Source: a virus. From it: 64,000 nt of DNA. Where the stretch lies: positions 17,892-81,891 of the IMG/VR virus record IMGVR_UViG_3300027917_000034. One strand, 5' to 3'. The position numbers and the translations under genes are program-made. Below are positions 2,266-50,182 of this stretch, piece after piece (within the stretch, counting starts at the first letter, position 1; every line of letters starts with the position of its first letter). The notes beneath the pieces were generated by a model, which had not been told where the DNA came from, did not search any database, and saw nothing but the letters and a program-made list of their open reading frames with translations.

Positions 2266-3138
2266 ATGTACGACCTGGACAACACCAGCCTCGGGCTCTG
2301 GGTAGACCTGCCGAGGCGGATGGTTCTCACCCCTGACTTCTTCCGCTGGTTCGCTGAGACGCTCCGGTTCGACCTCATGTCGATCATGATCGATGACGCG
2401 GACCCAGCGGTGGAGTTTTCTTGGACTGAGAAGGATGTCGAGCGAGCCCTCAAGATGGCCGACCCTTACGCCATCGAGATCGCGCTCACGACCTGGCCGT
2501 ACCCGGACGTGAACCTGCTTCGCCTCATGGAGCAGAAGATGGACGCGCTGCTCGGCGTTGGGCCGGTGGGCGAGTGGGAGACGGACCAGGAATTCAACTG
2601 GCAAGAGGACGACGTGAACGGCTTCGCCAACCTCGACAAGGCGGGCGATGCGTTGGTCGATATCAAGGGCCGGCTCTGCGACAAGCACGGCTGCCGGAAC
2701 ACGATGACGACCTTCACCTACCATCGGGAGAACAGCCCGAAGGCTGACACCGCGCAGCACATGGACCGTGTGATGGTCCAGGCGTATGCGACCGACGAGC
2801 GGGACGGCAAGCCGGTCACGTGGGACCACCGCTTCGGCCCTGGCCGTATGCAAACTCTCACCCTCAACCGCACGATGAAGGTGCCAGGTGTCGCGGCCGG
2901 CGTGGTCGAGCTAGGTGTGGGTCATGCGGCGTGGAATCAAGACGGCTTCCGGCGCCGGGTGGACGGAGAGTGGGTCGTCATGCCGGCCAACGACGCGATG
3001 GTGGCATCGTTCGAGGCATCGCTCCACTACAAGCCCGTGGCGCACAACTGGTGGAGCGCGAAATTCTGCTACCCACAGAGCCGCCGGTTCCTGTCCTACG
3101 CCGAGACCTTCCTCGTCGGGCTCCGGGAAGCCGCCTAG
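2266..3138 (+). CDS. putative glycoside-hydrolase-like TIM-barrel protein (GH25-like)
   Basis: AGGAGG RBS; WxYP, DxE ('ETDQE') and 'MVQAY' motifs; function tentative. Confidence 0.45.
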   Translation: MYDLDNTSLGLWVDLPRRMVLTPDFFRWFAETLRFDLMSIMIDDADPAVEFSWTEKDVERALKMADPYAIEIALTTWPYPDVNLLRLMEQKMDALLGVGPVGEWETDQEFNWQEDDVNGFANLDKAGDALVDIKGRLCDKHGCRNTMTTFTYHRENSPKADTAQHMDRVMVQAYATDERDGKPVTWDHRFGPGRMQTLTLNRTMKVPGVAAGVVELGVGHAAWNQDGFRRRVDGEWVVMPANDAMVASFEASLHYKPVAHNWWSAKFCYPQSRRFLSYAETFLVGLREAA

Positions 3139-3890: not shown

Positions 3891-4567
3891 GGTGGGAGTG
3901 GATATGGTCGTGTCCCTACCCGGATGAGGTCTGGAGGCAGTGGATGGATGAGAACATCGGCAAGGTGGCCCTACAGACGACCTGGGAGCAGAAGGTCAAG
4001 GACTGCACCCGCTGTCGTCTCCACGAGGGCCGGAACCAGATCGTCTACGGCATCGGGAACGCCGAGGCCCCGGACTTCCTATTCATCGGAGAGGGGCCAG
4101 GAGCCCACGAGGACCAGGAAGGGGAGCCGTTCGTCGGCCCGGCCGGGAAACTCCTGGACACGATCCTGAAGCACATGGGCTACACTCGGGAGGACGTCTA
4201 CATCTGCAACGTGGTCTCCTGCCGGCCACCGGGCAACCGTGACCCGAAGCCCGACGAGCTAGAGGCGTGCATGCCGGTCTGGACGTCTCAGGTCGTCGCC
4301 GTCCGGCCGAAGATGATCATCGCGCTCGGCAAGATCGCTGGGAACGTGCTTCTGGGCACCAAGGGACAGGCCATCGTCCAGATGCGGAAGAAGATCCACA
4401 CGTGGAACAAGACACCCGTGCAGATCACCTACCACCCGGCCGGGATGCTGCGGAACGAGCAGTACAAGCAACCGGCATGGGACGACCTGCGGAAGGCCAT
4501 GGCGCACGTGAAGGCGATGAAGGAGCGCGCACAGGACGCCGGGCCGCTGTTCGGAGGTGAGGCATGA
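3887..4567 (+). CDS. udg: uracil-DNA glycosylase, family 4 (4Fe-4S)
   Basis: CTRCRL, GEGPG, PFVGPAG, CRPPGNR, YHPA; true start may be downstream. Confidence 0.93.
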   Translation: MRWEWIWSCPYPDEVWRQWMDENIGKVALQTTWEQKVKDCTRCRLHEGRNQIVYGIGNAEAPDFLFIGEGPGAHEDQEGEPFVGPAGKLLDTILKHMGYTREDVYICNVVSCRPPGNRDPKPDELEACMPVWTSQVVAVRPKMIIALGKIAGNVLLGTKGQAIVQMRKKIHTWNKTPVQITYHPAGMLRNEQYKQPAWDDLRKAMAHVKAMKERAQDAGPLFGGEA

Positions 4568-17825: not shown

Positions 17826-18494
17826 ATGACGATCCGAACGAATTCCGTCCAGCAGTGCGACCGCTGCCTGAAACCATTCAAGGAAGCACACCTGAAAGCA
17901 GGGGACGCAGTGCCCGCTTTCAAACAGAAGGGCCTTGTCGTCACGGAGACGACTGGCACGAACAAGGAAGAGGAGCCGAAGTACACGGTCCTGTTCTCGT
18001 TCGATGACCTGTGCCCTGCCTGTGAGAAGGCGGTGGACGGGCTTCTCAAGAAGCTCCGTCTCGACGGCGCCACCGCGAAGAAGTCTCGGAAGCGACGATC
18101 GAAGAAGAAGACGGAAGAGACTCCGCCCAAGCCGCCGGAGTACACCGAAGATCCTCCGGCCGAGGCCGAGGCCGAGCCTGCCGAGGAGCCCCCGGCGGAG
18201 AAGCCGGGACCGGATGGCGAGCCTGCCGCCTCCGAGGGCGAGCCCCAGGAGAGCCAGGAGTCCAAGGACACCACGGACGAGGATTTCGAGGAAGCCGCGA
18301 AGCAGACCGACGCGGATGTGGCGGATGCCGAGGCGACGGAAAGCTCCGATGGTGGCAACGGAGCGGAAGCAGGTTCCGACGACAACCTCGTGGAAGACCC
18401 CGCTACCGGCGACAAGTACGACCCCGAGACCGGGGAAGTCGTGGTGCGAGGAGACAAGGGACAGAACGGGGCGCCGGAAAAGCACCCCTTCTAG
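17826..18494 (+). CDS. Zn-binding protein with long acidic disordered tail
   Basis: CDRC...DLCPAC; GGAGG RBS. Confidence 0.7.
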   Translation: MTIRTNSVQQCDRCLKPFKEAHLKAGDAVPAFKQKGLVVTETTGTNKEEEPKYTVLFSFDDLCPACEKAVDGLLKKLRLDGATAKKSRKRRSKKKTEETPPKPPEYTEDPPAEAEAEPAEEPPAEKPGPDGEPAASEGEPQESQESKDTTDEDFEEAAKQTDADVADAEATESSDGGNGAEAGSDDNLVEDPATGDKYDPETGEVVVRGDKGQNGAPEKHPF

Positions 18495-42746: not shown

Positions 42747-43088
42747 ATGGACAGCGCACTCAAAGAGCAACTCACAGAGGTCTTCGGAGGCGACATGAAC
42801 GTCGCGCCCGGGGGCACGGGGGCGGTGCTCACGCGCCCGTCCAAGCTGTCCTTGGAGGTGGCACAGCAAGCCGTCCGGTCCATGCCAATCGACGGCTTGT
42901 ACCGGGACGTTGGAGCGGTGGCAGCGCGGGTCTTGGCGGATGAATTGGAGAGCCGATCTCTCCGGCCGGCGGACTACGCTAACCTCCCCGATCTTCCGAA
43001 GGTGGTGGCGAAGAGGATCGTCGGCTACCTTCTGAGGTCTGAGGAGTTTGCTCGGTCGTTCTCCGAGCACCTGGCCGCGAGGGGATAG
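42747..43088 (+). CDS. hypothetical protein
   Basis: Lies between terL and portal. Confidence 0.65.
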   Translation: MDSALKEQLTEVFGGDMNVAPGGTGAVLTRPSKLSLEVAQQAVRSMPIDGLYRDVGAVAARVLADELESRSLRPADYANLPDLPKVVAKRIVGYLLRSEEFARSFSEHLAARG

Positions 43089-44881
43089 TGGGCGCCGTAC
43101 AGAACGTCATCGACCGCCTCCGTGGCGCGTTCATTGCCGACAAGGAACGAGGGGGACAGCTACTCGCCAAGGGCAGCACATCCCCAACCTATCCGGACTC
43201 CGGGTACGACCTGCTTCAAGCCTACGGGTACGACGCTCTGTCGGACTACCTTCGGTTGGAGCACGATCTCCTGTCCCGCTACGTGGACTACGAGGAGATG
43301 GACGACTACCCGGAAATAGCTTCTGCGATTGACATCTACGCCGACGACGCCTCGCAGCCGGACACTCAGCTACAGCGGACGGTCTGGGTATCGAGCCCGG
43401 ACAAGACCCTTCAGGGCGTCCTGGACGACCTGTTCCACAAGCGCCTGCGCCTGGACGAGGAGATCTGGGAGATTGTCCGATCGCTGGTGAAGTACGGCAA
43501 CGACTACGAGGAGCTACTGGTCAATCAGGACGGCGTGGTCGGCCTGAATTTCCTTCCGGCGCCGACCGTGCGCCGGGTGGAAGGCCCGCGTGGCGAGTTG
43601 TACGGGTTCGTCCAGGACTTCAAGGGACGATTCGGCTACTCCCCACAGGAATTCCAGAAGATCCTGGCCCAGCGGACAGACGCCATCCGCCAGGCCATGC
43701 AGCCCGGCTCGGCCCGGCCCCCTGGGAACATCCTCCAGCGTGTCTCCGCCTTGGAGCCCTGGGAGGTGGCCCACTTCCGGCTGCGTGGGAAGCATCGCCG
43801 GAGCGTGTACGGCTACTCCGTCCTCGAACCAGCGCGATGGATATGGAAGCGGCTCATGCTCCTGGAAGATGCCGCGATGATCTACCGTCTCCAGCGCGCC
43901 CCGGAGCGCTACGCCTTCTACGTGGATGTGGGCGACCTGCCTCCGGCCGAAGCGTTGGCGTTCGTCAACAAGATCCGGCAGCAGCACAAGAAGAAGCGGT
44001 TCGTCAACCCTTCCACTGGAAAACTCGATCTGAAATTCGAGCCCCTCTCCCAGGACGACGACTTCTGGGTTCCCGTCCGCAAGGGCGTGGAGGGGACTCG
44101 GATCGAAGTGCTCGGCGGCCCGTCCTGGCAGCACATGGAGGACGTAGAGTATTTCCAGACCAAGTTGTTTACCGCAGTGAAGGTGCCCAAGGCGTACCTC
44201 GCTCAAGACGAGAACACGGCACGGGCGGTTCTATCCAGCGAGGACGTCCGATTCGCTCGCTCGGTCCTCCGTGTCCAGCGTGAGGTCCGGAACGGTCTCC
44301 GCAAGGTAGCGCGCACGCACCTGGCAGCGCTCAACATCGACCCCTACGCGAACGAGTACACCATCCACATGACCGTGCCTTCGGCCATATTCGAGTTGGC
44401 CCAACTGGAGGTGCGGAACGCGAGAGCCGACCTGGCTGCTCGAATGAAAGAGCACGTCTCGCTTCGGTGGGTGCTGGAGAACGTCTACCTGCTCTCGGAT
44501 GAGGATATCAAGATCATCATTCAGGAGCGGTCGGAGGACGTCATCCGGGAGGGGAAAGCTCAGGCCGAGGTCGAGAAGATGAGCGCCCAGGCACAGGCGG
44601 ACGTGGAACAGGCGTCGGCTGCGGCCCAAGGTGGCGGCGGCATGGAGTCGCTCGGGCCTCCGTCTGGCATGAAGATCCTCGAACGGAAGCTGGCTGCCTT
44701 GCCCCGGCAGTTGCGGGGAGCCATCACAGAGCGAGAGCTTCTGAGTGGGAGCCGCGAGGCTGAGAAGAGGGCCGAAGGGAAGCTGGACAGCATCATGCGA
44801 TCCAACGATGCCAACACCCGCCGTCTGAGGGAAAGCGTGGCCCTACTCCGAGAGGTCGTGGCGGCGGGCCGGGGGCGGTAG
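43088..44881 (+). CDS. portal protein (T4 gp20-like)
   Basis: LEDA..IYRL.RAPER..FYVDVG.LP...A, DDFW.P.R, T.IE.L.G. Confidence 0.93.
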   Translation: MGAVQNVIDRLRGAFIADKERGGQLLAKGSTSPTYPDSGYDLLQAYGYDALSDYLRLEHDLLSRYVDYEEMDDYPEIASAIDIYADDASQPDTQLQRTVWVSSPDKTLQGVLDDLFHKRLRLDEEIWEIVRSLVKYGNDYEELLVNQDGVVGLNFLPAPTVRRVEGPRGELYGFVQDFKGRFGYSPQEFQKILAQRTDAIRQAMQPGSARPPGNILQRVSALEPWEVAHFRLRGKHRRSVYGYSVLEPARWIWKRLMLLEDAAMIYRLQRAPERYAFYVDVGDLPPAEALAFVNKIRQQHKKKRFVNPSTGKLDLKFEPLSQDDDFWVPVRKGVEGTRIEVLGGPSWQHMEDVEYFQTKLFTAVKVPKAYLAQDENTARAVLSSEDVRFARSVLRVQREVRNGLRKVARTHLAALNIDPYANEYTIHMTVPSAIFELAQLEVRNARADLAARMKEHVSLRWVLENVYLLSDEDIKIIIQERSEDVIREGKAQAEVEKMSAQAQADVEQASAAAQGGGGMESLGPPSGMKILERKLAALPRQLRGAITERELLSGSREAEKRAEGKLDSIMRSNDANTRRLRESVALLREVVAAGRGR

Positions 44882-44908: not shown

Positions 44909-45814
44909 GTGGAGCAGCTAGTGTCGGCCAAGATGATCGAGAGTCAAAACAAACTCCTCCCAGGCGCCGAGTTGAGGCGGCTGCGTATGGGGAGCTACGA
45001 GGCTCGGATCGAAGAGATGAGCAGGGTCGTCCACGCGAGCCTTGGTGATGAGCCGTTCGAGATCGTGGCGACACAGGACAGCGGGGCCGTCGTGTACGCA
45101 GACGGCCGGTTCCTTCGGCTGGAATTGACCGAGGACGGTCCGTCGCTCACAGACCTCGACGTGGAGACTTTCGACGCGGCCAGTCTGTACGCTTTCATGG
45201 AGCGCGAGGCTGGTGTAGTGGCCGATCTCTTTCTCCGTGGCTCCGTGAAGTCGGCGGTAGCGCGGTTGGAGAACCTGGTTCCGGCAGTCCCGCTCCCGAG
45301 CGGGGCCACCGCGAAGATCGAAGCCTTGATTGCTGCTCCGCGACCGTGGAGACGACTGTTCGAGGCTCGCAGAGACTACATCGTCGGCTTCATCGGAGAG
45401 GACGCAGAGGCCCTGGAAGAGGGTCGGTTGCGCCCCAACTTCGGTAAGTTGTATGATGGGTCGATCGAAGAAGGCAAACTCGACAACTACGAGGATCGGG
45501 TATCAGAAGGTCTGGGGATCGTGCTTGACAGGTTGGGACAGATTCGGGACGAGGTTGGGTCTGCGCTCGCGTCAGCGACCGACGCGCTCTCCGAGTCCAC
45601 AGAGCCTATCGCAGCGCTGTTCTCCCGGTTCGCGGATGATCTGTACGCCGATCTTTTCGCCCTCCACGAGTCGGCTTCCCACGCAACAGAAGCAGTAGAC
45701 GATATCGGGACTCGTGGTAAACTCTGCGACACGCTTGCCGAAGGGCTGTACGATCGTGAGGTCGCCAGCCGCTTCGTCGTCGTGGTGGCCGACAAAATGG
45801 TCGAGGCCAGCTAG
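44909..45814 (+). CDS. hypothetical head-module protein
   Basis: 301 aa between portal and scaffold. Confidence 0.7.
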   Translation: MEQLVSAKMIESQNKLLPGAELRRLRMGSYEARIEEMSRVVHASLGDEPFEIVATQDSGAVVYADGRFLRLELTEDGPSLTDLDVETFDAASLYAFMEREAGVVADLFLRGSVKSAVARLENLVPAVPLPSGATAKIEALIAAPRPWRRLFEARRDYIVGFIGEDAEALEEGRLRPNFGKLYDGSIEEGKLDNYEDRVSEGLGIVLDRLGQIRDEVGSALASATDALSESTEPIAALFSRFADDLYADLFALHESASHATEAVDDIGTRGKLCDTLAEGLYDREVASRFVVVVADKMVEAS

Positions 45815-45820
45815 GGAGGA

Positions 45821-46735
45821 ATGAAAATGGGTCTGCTACTGAGACACCCGGTTGTGATCACTTCCTTGGAGGAAGACTTCCGGCGCATTGGCCTCATCAA
45901 GACCGAAGAGGCCCGCGACGAGGGAGACGACCTGCAAGAGCACCTCATGGAGTCCACCGAGGACTTCGATGCCGAGGACGAGCCCGAAGAGGGTGAGGAC
46001 GAGGCCACCGAGGATGCGGACGAGGACGACGAGGCCATGGCCGAAGCCGTCGCCTTCCACGAGGACGCCATGTCCATGTGGCAGGAGTTTGGCGAGTCTG
46101 GCGTCGAGACTCTGTTCATGGACGAGGAGTCCATGGCCGAGTTGGAGTCCATGGGCGAGTCCATCACCGAGCTTCCCCTCGCGGTCGTCGGCGCCTCCAT
46201 CGAGGAGTACGGCGACGAGTACGAGGGCGAAGAGGTCCACGAGGACGACGAGGCCGAGGACGACGAGGAAGAGGGCGAGGAGTACGGCGAAGACGACGAG
46301 CCGGCCAATCCCTTTGCCTCCGTTGCAGAGGCCATGAGCGCGATCGAGTCCATCCTGGACGAGGACGCGCAGCCGACCGACTCGCTGGAGGAAGCGACTC
46401 CGGCGTTCGCCAACCTGGCTCTCATCTCGGAGAAGCTGTACGGCTTCTTTGCCGAGACGGCCGAGATCCAGGAAGACGCGGAGTACGCGGAGATTGCCGA
46501 GGCGTACAAGCAGATCGCACACTACTCGGCGGCGATCGTGGACACCCTCCAGAAGGAGAGCCCGGACACGATCAACTTCGATGCCCTGACCGAGACCTTC
46601 CAGGACTACCTCGGGACGGTCCTGCAAGGGCTGGAGACCTACGCCATTCTGCGCGAGGCCGACGAGAGCGGCGACGAGGACGGCGAGACGGACGAGGGCG
46701 AGGAGCAGGACGAGGGCGACGAGGGAAACGAATAG
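45821..46735 (+). CDS. highly acidic prohead core/scaffold-like protein
   Basis: D/E-rich, many L/I-x-E sites, upstream of protease. Confidence 0.65.
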   Translation: MKMGLLLRHPVVITSLEEDFRRIGLIKTEEARDEGDDLQEHLMESTEDFDAEDEPEEGEDEATEDADEDDEAMAEAVAFHEDAMSMWQEFGESGVETLFMDEESMAELESMGESITELPLAVVGASIEEYGDEYEGEEVHEDDEAEDDEEEGEEYGEDDEPANPFASVAEAMSAIESILDEDAQPTDSLEEATPAFANLALISEKLYGFFAETAEIQEDAEYAEIAEAYKQIAHYSAAIVDTLQKESPDTINFDALTETFQDYLGTVLQGLETYAILREADESGDEDGETDEGEEQDEGDEGNE

Positions 46736-46968
46736 ACCGGCGGCGCCCCTTGCCGCCCAAGAAAGGCGGCTCTTGGCGGCGGCGTCGGACGGCGTATTCC
46801 TCGGGTAGACGGGAGGAGATCGGTATGGAAAAGAGCCCGGTGAAACGGAAGACACGGAAGGTCGGACCATCCGGCGCCGTGCTCGACCGCCCCGGGTTCG
46901 GTGGCGTGCTCGACACCATCGTCGGGCGAACGCCGTTCCGGTCCAGCTTCCGATGGAAGAGGTCGTGA
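46723..46968 (+). other. putative -1 frameshift site G GGA AAC with basic extension frame
   Basis: In-frame XXXYYYZ heptamer, downstream stem, -1 frame open to the TGATG overlap with the protease start. Confidence 0.55.
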
Positions 46969-48629
46969 TGGGCGCGCAGACTACCCCGGCCCCTGAGAAC
47001 CAGTTGATCGATGAGCAGGTTCATCACTGCAAGCTCACACTGGTCGAGGGGGAAGGCGAGAAGAAGGGTCGCGTGTACGCACGCGGCGAATTCGGCCACG
47101 CGGCCAAGCCGACCGCGAACGGCCGCTTCTACCGGCACAACATCTGGGAGAGCAACATCGCCCGCCTGCGGCCCAACCTGGAGTCGAGGAAGGTTCTGGG
47201 CGAGTTGGACCATCCGACTGACGGGCGGACGGCCCTCCAGCGTGCCTCCCACGTCATCACCGATCTTCGCCTGGAAGGCGATCAGGTGTTGGGCGAGGCG
47301 GAGATCCTGGACACGGCCAAGGGGCGTGACCTGAAGGCCATCCTCGCAGCGGGCGTCCCGGTGGGCATCTCGTCGCGCGGTTTCGGAAGCACCAAGCCGA
47401 ACAGCGAAGGTGTGGAGGAAGTCCAAGAGGACTACAAACTCGTCACCTTCGATTTCGTCGCGGAGCCGGCGGACCCAACGGCCTACCCGGAAGCGGTGTT
47501 CGAGAACGCCGAGCAGGGTGTGGCCATGATGTTCGAGGGCGTGGCTTTCGAGACGGCCGAGGCGGAACCAGCTTCCGAGCCCGAGCCCGAGCCCGAACCC
47601 GAAGGTGATGAGCCGTCCGAAGGGGAGGAAGAGGCCGACGAGAGCGTGGCTCCGAACGTCGGCTCTGCCCCGCCCGGAGAAGCGGAGATGGCCCAGCGCT
47701 TCGCGGAGCGCGTCATTGCCGATGCGGAAGGCAACTCGGTCGATGTGGAGGCGCTCCGTCAGGAGTTTGCGGATCAGATCGTGTCCCGCATCGCGGCCCT
47801 CCGTGCCGACGTGGAGAAGCAGGTCCGGGCTGAGATGGCATCGGACCCGGCTGTCGCGGGCGCGCGGGCTGCTTTGGAGCAGGTACAGCGTGCCTTACTC
47901 CCCTTCGCCCTGACAGAGGATGCCAACGCGCTCATCGCGGAGCGCGACGACGAAATCCGCGTCCTGCGGTCCCAACTGGCCGAGGCCGAGCAGACCATCG
48001 AACAGCACGAGACGCTGATCGAAACGCTGGCGGAGGCGGCCAAGGAAGCCGGCTACAAGTACCACCTGGAGTGCCTGCTTCACGAGGACGACGCGGACAT
48101 CGAACGCCTGAGAGCGATCGTCGGGGACGTCTCGCAGTACGACAGCCCGGATGCGCTCCGCGAGCGGGTCGAGGAAGCCTACGGAGAGATGCAAGCGTTC
48201 CGTCTGGAAGAGGAGCGCGTGCAACAACAGCGCACGGCGGAATCCGATCGTCTGCGCGGCAAGAACCGCGAGTTGGCCGAGGGCCTGGAGAAGGCGCTCG
48301 TGGCCAATCGTGACCTCGCTCTCCAGGTGTACGCATCCGAGAGGTTGCAAACTCACCCACAAGGTGCGAAGATCCTCCGCATGCTCAAGCGATCTGGAAT
48401 CCAGTCGCGCGAGCAAGTGGACGCGATGATCGAGGACTTCCGAGAGCCAGAACGTGACGCAGAAGACCTGGAAGCGGTTCGAGCCAGGGTTCGCGCACGG
48501 CTGCATGGCGGGCGGGAGTACCTGGAAGAGGACGTTCAACCCGCACGCGGCCGGGGGGCCGGGGCGGGCAACTACAACGGGCTCGGAGCATCCCTGGCGG
48601 AGCTAAAGCACCTCTCTGGGATGGACTGA
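46968..48629 (+). CDS. prohead protease (T4 gp21-like) fused to a scaffold-like coiled coil
   Basis: NGR.Y, GELDHP, ASH, GISSRG, DFV.EP; acidic helical C-terminus. Confidence 0.9.
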   Translation: MGAQTTPAPENQLIDEQVHHCKLTLVEGEGEKKGRVYARGEFGHAAKPTANGRFYRHNIWESNIARLRPNLESRKVLGELDHPTDGRTALQRASHVITDLRLEGDQVLGEAEILDTAKGRDLKAILAAGVPVGISSRGFGSTKPNSEGVEEVQEDYKLVTFDFVAEPADPTAYPEAVFENAEQGVAMMFEGVAFETAEAEPASEPEPEPEPEGDEPSEGEEEADESVAPNVGSAPPGEAEMAQRFAERVIADAEGNSVDVEALRQEFADQIVSRIAALRADVEKQVRAEMASDPAVAGARAALEQVQRALLPFALTEDANALIAERDDEIRVLRSQLAEAEQTIEQHETLIETLAEAAKEAGYKYHLECLLHEDDADIERLRAIVGDVSQYDSPDALRERVEEAYGEMQAFRLEEERVQQQRTAESDRLRGKNRELAEGLEKALVANRDLALQVYASERLQTHPQGAKILRMLKRSGIQSREQVDAMIEDFREPERDAEDLEAVRARVRARLHGGREYLEEDVQPARGRGAGAGNYNGLGASLAELKHLSGMD

Positions 48630-48688: not shown

Positions 48689-50182
48689 GTGGAAGCTCGA
48701 CAGATGCTTCAGGAAGAGGGTCGTCGAACGATCGCCGACCAGAGCTATGTCGGGGCTCTCATTCGGAAGTGGGGAGACTTCCTGGAGGGCCTGGCAGACC
48801 ATTCCGAGCAGGACAGGTACATCCTCGGGTGCACCGCCATGCTCATGGAGAACGAGTCCCTGTGGCTCCAGTCCCTCACGGAGGAGACTCGGACCGTCAA
48901 CGTCGGCTCGTTCACCAAGTTCATTTTCCCCGTTCTGCGTCGAGTTTTCCCCAACTTGATCGCGAACGAGATCGTCTCGGTCCAGCCGATGACGGCGCCC
49001 ATCGGCGCGGTCTTCTTCCTGGACTACGTGTACGGCTCGACCAAGGGCGGGACGACCGAGGGCGCGGTGTTCCCCCGCGACTTCGATCGGGACTACTCCT
49101 CGGAGTACGTCAACGGGGAGCCCCTCGTCACGGGCGATGGCGTCAACTTCGGTGGCGTCGGCACCCCGCTCGACGCCGTGATGGCGTGGACCCCGGTTCG
49201 GCCGCTCGACGCGCAGCGCGGCTTCTCGGTCATCGTGCAGGAGATCGACGCGGCGACGGGCGAGCCCGTGGCTGGCCAGATCATGACCGACGATGGAGCG
49301 GGCGGCTTCACAGGCGGTGCGGCTGGCTCGATCAACTACTCGAACGGCTCGATCACCGGGCTCCTGTTCACCGCCGCGCCGGCCCTGGGGAACCAGGTCA
49401 AGGCGTACTACTACTTCGACGGCGAGTTGAACACCAAGGTTCCCGAGGTGAAGCTCGACGTCAAGAAAGCTCCCGTGGAAGCCGTTCCGCGCCGGCTCAA
49501 GGCTCTGTGGTCCTCCGAGGCCGCCGAAGACCTCCGGGCGTTCCACGGCCTCGACGCCGAGACCGAGATCGTGTCGATCATCGCGCAGGAGATCGCGCTG
49601 GAGATCGACCGTGAGATCATCCAAGACCTGTTCCTGTCCTCGACGGGCACGACGGCCACGTTCGACCGCATCCCGCCCGGTGGCATCGCGGAGATCGACC
49701 ACCTGCGGGCCATGCTGACGCAGATCAGCACGGTCTCGAACCTCATCCACAAGAAGACGCTCCGTGCGCCGGCCAACTGGATCGTCACGAGCCCCGAGAT
49801 TTCGGCGCTCCTGACGCAGTTGACCACCCACGGCGACTTCAAGCCCATCTGGTCCGGGGACATGAACCCCAACAGCCCGATGGACACGATGAGGCCGCGC
49901 ACGGCTCATGGGCAATTCTCGATCTACAAGACCGGGACGCTCATGAACAAGTGGGTCGTCTACGAAGACCCCTTCTTCACGACCAACAAGATGATGATCG
50001 GTCTGAAGGGCGGGAGCTTCCTGGAGTCCGGCTACTGCTGGGCGCCCTACGTGCCCCTCCAGGTCACGCCGACCTTCCTCGACCCGAGCGACTTCAGCTT
50101 CCGCAAGGGCCTCCGGACCCGCTACGCGAAGAAGCTGCTTCGCCCGGACTTCTACGGCCAGATGACGGTCACGAACCTGTAG
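48689..50182 (+). CDS. major capsid protein (T4 gp23-like)
   Basis: RRVFPNLIA..IV.VQPM..P, RRLKA.WS.E...DL.A.HGLDAE, EIDREI, APYVPL, TRYA. Confidence 0.95.
   Translation: MEARQMLQEEGRRTIADQSYVGALIRKWGDFLEGLADHSEQDRYILGCTAMLMENESLWLQSLTEETRTVNVGSFTKFIFPVLRRVFPNLIANEIVSVQPMTAPIGAVFFLDYVYGSTKGGTTEGAVFPRDFDRDYSSEYVNGEPLVTGDGVNFGGVGTPLDAVMAWTPVRPLDAQRGFSVIVQEIDAATGEPVAGQIMTDDGAGGFTGGAAGSINYSNGSITGLLFTAAPALGNQVKAYYYFDGELNTKVPEVKLDVKKAPVEAVPRRLKALWSSEAAEDLRAFHGLDAETEIVSIIAQEIALEIDREIIQDLFLSSTGTTATFDRIPPGGIAEIDHLRAMLTQISTVSNLIHKKTLRAPANWIVTSPEISALLTQLTTHGDFKPIWSGDMNPNSPMDTMRPRTAHGQFSIYKTGTLMNKWVVYEDPFFTTNKMMIGLKGGSFLESGYCWAPYVPLQVTPTFLDPSDFSFRKGLRTRYAKKLLRPDFYGQMTVTNL

Follow-up and report, generated by a model that had tools for sequence, protein, structure and literature searches.

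A probable programmed −1 ribosomal frameshift, proposed from sequence and comparative signals, among the head-assembly genes of an uncultured T4-like phage of marine sediment

In tailed phages, the established cases of programmed ribosomal frameshifting are mainly the tail assembly chaperones, with a few capsid and tail proteins besides, and the T7 capsid gene yields its two products, 10A and 10B, by a −1 frameshift. The carboxysome scaffold isoforms CsoS2A and CsoS2B also arise by ribosomal frameshifting. The −1 frameshift of the tail assembly chaperone genes, which gives the products G and GT, has been described in lambda and other tailed phages (Levin, Hendrix and Casjens 1993; Xu, Hendrix and Duda 2004; cited in PMC5221750), and a −1 frameshift occurs in the major head protein of Lactobacillus phage A2 (Garcia et al. 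2004, cited in PMC5221750). In the tail-chaperone genes of Burkholderia phage KL1 (PMC3483164) and Caulobacter phage Colossus (PMC3556154), a GGGAAAC slip site beside a stop codon has been predicted. Here we analyse 64,000 nucleotides (nt) of DNA (the window; positions 17,892 to 81,891 of the IMG/VR virus record IMGVR_UViG_3300027917_000034), which is part of an 81.9-kb record estimated to be 48% complete and comes from an uncultured T4-like phage from marine sediment. In its head-assembly module, between the portal and prohead protease genes, an open reading frame (ORF) for a very acidic protein ends in the heptamer G_GGA_AAC, and the sequence and its comparison with relatives make it very probable that a programmed −1 ribosomal frameshift takes place there and appends a basic tail to the acidic protein.

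The mechanism is of the textbook type, a standard X_XXY_YYZ heptamer followed by a stem-loop. As in G/GT, where the heptamer is G_GGA_AAG or G_GGA_AAC, the slip site lies at or near the stop codon that ends the upstream ORF, slippage by −1 adds a C-terminal extension to a protein with one start codon, and the layout is kept by position across very diverged phages. However, G/GT lies upstream of the tape measure gene, whereas the present locus is in the head module, in the portal–protease interval; it is not flanked, as a tail chaperone pair would be, by major tail or tube genes and the tape measure gene. The extension here is moreover a short, basic peptide, predicted to be disordered, in place of the folded T domain, and the proteins are unrelated. 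The T7 and A2 cases share with this locus a head-structure gene that gives a normal and a C-terminally extended product at a set ratio, by −1 slippage near the end of the ORF; there, however, the major capsid protein is extended, as a surface or structural component, whereas here an acidic non-capsid protein, putatively of the core or scaffold, would receive a basic tail. CsoS2 likewise is a disordered protein that assembles or scaffolds an icosahedral shell and that programmed frameshifting yields as two isoforms, but protein and system are unrelated, and the CsoS2 shift truncates where the present one would extend. In our literature searches, recoding of a T4-like prohead-core or scaffold gene was nowhere described, and the words scaffold and prohead do not occur in the available part of the recoding review PMC5009743; the gene context of this frameshift is apparently undescribed. 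A deeply conserved case at a T4-like prohead-core locus would add a new recoded gene family.

The 3' end of the acidic ORF reads GAG GGA AAC GAA TAG, which bears out the in-frame G_GGA_AAC that the first-pass annotation of this DNA had seen near the stop. GGGAAAC occurs three times in the 64 kb, and only the copy at 46723 is in the slippery phase of a long ORF; the copies at 4145 and 13083 are also inside long ORFs, and their phases (GGG_AAA and GG_GAA_AC) mean that they are not slip-site candidates. From 46723 the −1 frame translates as GKRIDRRRPLPPKKGGSWRRRR...FRWKRS and terminates at a TGA (46966–46968) that shares its A with the protease ATG at 46968 (TGATG). The open frame of some 80 codons ending in this overlap, as first described, proves to be 81 codons long. 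By itself the open −1 frame proves nothing, because the window is GC-rich (63.6%) and the same frame stays open over 242 codons before the heptamer as well. The case therefore rests on comparison with relatives.

Scans with the protease yielded 12 further distinct lineages (51–84% protease identity), or 13 with the window. All 13 retain G_GGA_AAC, or G_GGA_AAA in two of them, 0–1 codon 5' of the stop; in these two (L025 and L026) the heptamer is followed directly by TAG. Among the 13 lineages the stop itself varies (TAG, TAA or TGA), as do the intervening codon (GAA, GAG, GGG, GAC or GGC) and the residue preceding the heptamer. The Gly codon is GGA in 32 of 32 heptamer-bearing lineages, a codon that makes up 9% of the Gly codons in the head genes of the window, and in all 32 the last base of the codon before it is G, whether that codon stands for E, G, R, S, P, M, A, L or K. 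A constant GGA and a constant preceding G, despite nine different residues, indicate that the nucleotides are conserved and not the peptide. The −1 frame is open for 79–86 codons in all 13 lineages, including one with 46% GC (L012), and in four of them (L003, L010, L012 and L013) a −1-frame stop lies 0–3 codons 5' of the heptamer, so that the frame cannot be entered from farther upstream. The first-pass annotation had said that loss of the heptamer in relatives, or −1-frame stops upstream of an internal ATG (here located at 46825), would speak against a frameshift. The heptamer is present in every close relative and in most distant ones, no stop separates it from the ATG position in any relative, and all the contrary signs named there that can be computed were looked for without one being found.

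The same relatives bear on the idea that the change of frame reflects transcriptional slippage, a mistake in sequencing or assembly, or a mutation that has inactivated a single-frame gene. Homopolymer runs do cause polymerase slippage and sequencing indels, and one lineage (L052) has a run of seven T at the equivalent place. The runs at the heptamer, however, are only G3 and A3, far below known transcriptional slippage sites, and more than 30 independently assembled, diverged sequences have the same two-frame layout. Furthermore, a separate run from a different sample and study is identical to the window over 46300–46784, across the site, with no indel reported. The identical independent run, together with the two-frame layout in dozens of assemblies, argues that this is not an assembly artefact. 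No single-frame fused homologue was found among the longer proteins searched, which is weak evidence against a broken gene. We regard slippage of the polymerase, error or mutation as extremely improbable.

The extension evolves as a coding sequence from its first codons. Over extension codons 4–33, the ratio of nonsynonymous to synonymous differences per site (pN/pS, Nei–Gojobori) in the −1 frame takes the values 0.15 and 0.30 for groups A and B of the relatives, respectively, as against 1.4–3.8 in the other frames, and the variable columns number 10, 4 and 28 at codon positions 1, 2 and 3. The window and the lineage L002, for example, differ in four consecutive Arg codons (CGG to CGC, CGG to CGC, CGT to CGC and CGG to AGA) with the peptide unchanged. 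These substitution patterns indicate purifying selection on the stretch from the heptamer to the internal ATG, in no frame but −1, and show that this stretch is translated.

This result also decides the fate of the alternative offered in the first-pass annotation, in which the downstream region is a separate small gene for a 47-amino-acid (aa) protein (MEKSPVKRK...) that starts at the internal ATG, with no recoding at all. The ATG is preceded at a distance of 6 nt by GGGAGGAG, most relatives have a GTG or ATG within three codons of its position, and gene callers predict short ORFs there (P0003 and P0008). However, no start codon is conserved at any single position: the ATG is replaced by GTC, GTT or GCT in L002, L011, L012, L013, L023 and L037, two of these (L012 and L013) have no ATG, GTG or TTG throughout codons 32–35, and the window lacks the GTG that other lineages carry three codons 5' of the internal ATG. 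In an alignment of 45 family members, the invariant tail residues all lie 5' of the ATG (Met35 of the window extension), so that the 47-aa product would lack them and cannot be the conserved function. The 30 codons before the ATG have a low pN/pS (0.15–0.30, −1 frame), and the conservation of the heptamer would be left unexplained. The separate gene is thus rejected as the source of the main product and is judged highly improbable, and the 47-aa protein is at most a possible by-product in the window phage.

Downstream of the slip site the RNA is predicted to fold into a bipartite, 52-nt stem-loop (minimum free energy −36.2 kcal/mol, 90% of the ensemble, z = −3.56 against dinucleotide shuffles). 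It consists of an outer stem (46737–46742 with 46783–46788), a middle stem (46744–46749 with 46775–46781) and an apical hairpin (46752–46757 with 46765–46770) with the loop CAAGAAA. A stem had been expected here from the sequence, and a stable one is found; the particular GGCGGCG/TGCCGCC hairpin then proposed, however, is absent from the minimum-energy fold and differs from the conserved one, and the spacer is 7 nt instead of 9. Most relatives have a structure at this place. About half of the 32 lineages folded have a stem 6–8 nt 3' of the heptamer, including lineages of unrelated sequence there, such as L049, L054, L080 and L063, and further lineages show it within minimum-energy folds that have added outer pairs. 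When the window structure is applied to seven gap-free relatives, 90.5% of the cells are paired, as against 32–39% when it is slid by one or two columns. Compensatory changes occur at five pairs, and the covariation score was reached by none of 500 shuffles. Every covarying pair links two third codon positions, as with CCG:GGC, CCA:GGT and CCT:GGG within the apical hairpin (Pro-Pro/Gly-Gly), and the stem is thus maintained by synonymous sites.

The slip site and stem also weigh on a further explanation, that the whole 80-residue tail protein is made on its own, by termination and reinitiation or by non-canonical initiation at an NTA or NTG codon (ATA, GTA or CTG) overlapping the stop of the acidic ORF. 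The −1 codon overlapping the stop is ATA, GTA, CTG or TTG in relatives, and in other lineages the tail protein is free-standing with its own Met and able to work separately. Yet ATA, GTA and CTA are very poor bacterial starts, the overlapping codon is not conserved, and independent initiation explains neither the nucleotide conservation of G_GGA_AAN, with its synonymous choice of GGA and the preceding G, nor the stable stem 6–8 nt past the heptamer, which would hinder initiation there. From the heptamer to the region of the internal start (codons 32–35), ATG, GTG and TTG are all absent in 11 of the 13 lineages (the exceptions being the window and L013), and in 12 of the 13 there is none 5' of the invariant motif, the window having one TTG. 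Independent initiation is considered very improbable. With the heptamer conserved, the −1 frame free of stops up to the internal ATG and the extension evolving as a coding sequence, the proposal of a −1 frameshift that appends a basic tail to the acidic protein, and so yields two isoforms, is supported.

As proposed, ribosomes on the acidic ORF would reach G_GGA_AAC with the GC-rich stem-loop 7 nt on and the stop one codon ahead. The majority would terminate, yielding a very acidic protein of 304 aa (104 D+E, or 34%; isoelectric point (pI) about 4; 33.7 kDa). A fraction would slip one base back, tRNA-Gly moving from GGA to GGG and tRNA-Asn from AAC to AAA, translate 79 more codons in the −1 frame and end at the TGA that overlaps the protease ATG. 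The expected fusion is a protein of 382 aa and 42.7 kDa, composed of the same acidic body and an 80-residue, highly basic tail, and tandem slippage would give the junction ...DEGN-RIDRRR. The tail is predicted to be disordered, as read from the low scores of an AlphaFold2 model built on a 45-sequence tail alignment (mean predicted local distance difference test (pLDDT) 62.5, predicted template modelling score (pTM) 0.15), in which there is one short helix. Searches of Pfam and PHROGs with the tail and its free-standing homologues found nothing, nor did a search of PDB sequences with the tail-family profile; in the ESM Atlas the window tail is absent, and a free-standing homologue used as query gave no usable match. 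The acidic protein has a conserved C-terminal region and a strongly conserved N-terminus, LLRHPVVITSLEEDFRRIGLI (45821–45890). This N-terminus, in which an L-E-E resembles the (L/I)-x-E cleavage context of the T4 prohead protease, might serve as a signal for targeting or cleavage.

The ribosomes that end at the protease start are only those that have shifted frame (or begun internally), so that translation of the protease might be coupled to the shift. The TGATG overlap is present in the window, L002 and L012; the other relatives have small gaps or separate starts.

To see how widely the tail occurs, viral sequences were scanned with the tail alignment, which gave 56 loci, 47 of them distinct. 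In-phase G_GGA_AAN is found at 33 of the 47 distinct loci with the tail motif (G_GGA_AAC at 27, and G_GGA_AAA or G_GGA_AAG at six). In five (L068, L082, L078, L081 and L089) the tail has its own ATG, and the remaining nine have other or unclear layouts, including a T_TTT_TTT run, G_GGG_GGC and a recurrent CGC_CCT_AYC followed by a stop. The free-standing genes code for 65–100 aa and lie immediately 5' of the protease gene (at 2989–3186 in L068 and L082); in L078 and L081 there is an overlap, in the +1 phase, between the tail gene and the poly-D/E end of the acidic gene that precedes it. Matches in protein databases include free-standing versions of 57–92 aa with conserved N-terminal extensions, P0004, P0005 and P0017 being among the free-standing homologues. 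These small proteins of other lineages suggest that the tail is a module able to act as a separate polypeptide. In a tree of the protease, heptamer-bearing lineages occupy several deep, well-supported clades, and the L068/L082 clade, with its own ATG, is nested among them; since the tree is midpoint-rooted only, we claim no direction of change.

Some loci with the tail motif end the upstream ORF in another way. In the distant relatives L050, L064/L065 and L072/L074 (at about 2950–3000 of each locus) there is no G_GGA_AAN, and the upstream ORF ends in CGC CCT A(C/T)C, 0–1 codon and a stop. No start codon lies 5' of the motif in L050 or L072, and L064 has an ATG seven codons before it. This ending may be a different slip site with the same purpose, perhaps by P-site slippage on C_CCU. 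At the equivalent place, L052 (about 2940) has GGT TTT TTT, where ribosomal or transcriptional slippage could occur, and L073 (about 2985) has G_GGG_GGC.

From gene position and composition, we infer that both products of the acidic ORF are components of the prohead core or scaffold, made at a ratio set by the recoding signal. The nearest parallel is the T4 locus, where the gene order is 20-67-68-21; here the acidic ORF and its tail lie in the same place, between portal and protease. T4 gp67 is acidic, with a poly-D/E end, and gp68 combines an acidic front with a strongly basic C-terminal tail, its gene adjoining g21; both belong to the prohead core, where there are hundreds of copies of each, and gp21 degrades them (PMC9958956). 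T4 differs, however, in having two separate genes without recoding, and the T4 acidic protein has 80 aa as against 304 aa here. Neither the acidic ORF nor the tail matched Pfam PF17634 (GP67), PHROG 1064 (gp67) or PHROG 1049 (gp68), and an hhalign comparison of the tail profile with T4 gp68 gave a probability of 0.04%. A resemblance noticed by eye between RNAFQTTG in T4 gp68 and RTAYSSG in the tail was dropped, since hhalign shows no similarity. Position and charge pattern thus mirror gp67 and gp68 without sequence similarity, and we use the parallel as a working analogy and not as a statement of family membership. On this analogy we tentatively suggest, as a possibility that we would not call likely, that one recoded gene does the job of the two T4 core genes, the zero-frame product being gp67-like and the frameshift product gp68-like, with a disordered, basic tail (invariant motifs RRTAYxSGR and FRW) that may anchor the core to the shell, the portal or the incoming DNA. 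If so, slip efficiency would set the stoichiometry of the core and perhaps head size, and the switching of the tail between a free-standing gene and a frameshift extension would be a natural experiment on the fixing of ratios by recoding.

Several points weigh against the interpretation given here. In synthetic constructs in E. coli, heptamers ending in AAG are far more shift-prone than those ending in AAC, according to the review PMC5009743. A good Shine–Dalgarno sequence with an ATG, at 46825, is present in the window and in no other sequence inspected, and an extra short product is possible. As to the stem, slides of ±3 columns still leave 60–63% of the cells paired, an effect of the Arg-codon repeats, and the covariation test drew on seven related sequences, one of which supplied the structure. 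Finally, the prohead-core assignment comes from position and composition, with no sequence homology to T4 gp67 or gp68.

The frameshift reading has consequences for annotation: gene callers miss the 382-aa product and either call truncated 'hypothetical' ORFs or leave a gap. In the window, an apparent gap of 233 nt separates the acidic ORF from the protease gene. The occurrence of the tail in free-standing and fused forms, together with a stem kept at synonymous sites, makes this a tractable system for the study of head-protein stoichiometry set by recoding.

The order of genes in the head module is portal, a 301-aa ORF, the acidic ORF with its tail, protease and major capsid protein; the positions of these genes and of the recoding features are given in Table 1.

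Table 1. Positions of the recoding features and head-module genes in the window
Feature	Position	Strand	Basis or remarks
T4-like portal gene (gp20 family)	43088–44881	+	Pfam Portal_T4, E = 1e-71; PHROG 213
301-aa ORF (orf301), between portal and acidic genes	44909–45814		No Pfam or PHROG match
Acidic ORF, zero frame, 304 aa, product ending ...DEGNE	45821–46735	+	No Pfam or PHROG family
Slippery heptamer G_GGA_AAC (X_XXY_YYZ), zero frame, one codon 5' of stop	46723–46729	+	Sequence; conserved in relatives
−1 frame extension, 81 codons from GGG, 25 K+R, pI 12	46723–46968	+	pN/pS low in −1 frame only
Zero-frame stop TAG	46733–46735	+	TAA, TAG or TGA at equivalent place in relatives
Candidate stimulatory RNA stem-loop, 52 nt, 7 nt 3' of heptamer	46737–46788	+	Minimum-energy fold and covariation
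Invariant tail-family core R-x-R-R-T-A-Y-x-S-G-R-x-E-x-x-G	46777–46824	+	45-member family alignment
Internal ATG, with GGGAGGAG upstream	46825–46827	+	Position not conserved: GTC, GTT, GCT or GTG in relatives
Conserved C-terminal tail motif TPF(R/K)xxFRW(K/R)	46930–46965	+	Tail-family alignment
Prohead protease (S77, gp21 family) with long scaffold-like C-terminal region	46968–48629	+	Pfam Peptidase_S77, E = 9e-19, residues 28–175; PHROG 207, E = 2e-50
Major capsid protein (gp23 family)	48689–50182	+	Pfam Gp23, E = 1e-70

Near-identical DNA is contained in marine-sediment metagenome runs; none of the runs listed for the locus is an RNA run. Among GenBank phage isolates there is no close relative, the best protease identity being below 40% and mostly to cyanophages. 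A blastn search of 45000–48000 against 50,697 GenBank phage records gave a single, chance-like match of 77 nt, and a tblastn search of the same records with the tail gave nothing even at E = 10. When 185,579 prokaryote genomes were scanned with the tail motif, no relative turned up, and so there is no prophage or host clue from them.

T4 is without a similarly sized counterpart of the 301-aa ORF at that position. The C-terminal region of the protease, of about 370 aa, is acidic and then coiled-coil-like, and PHROG 207 covers residues 10–425 of the protein; it looks like gp21 joined to a gp22-type scaffold in a single chain, whereas g21 and g22 are distinct genes in T4 and S-PM2.

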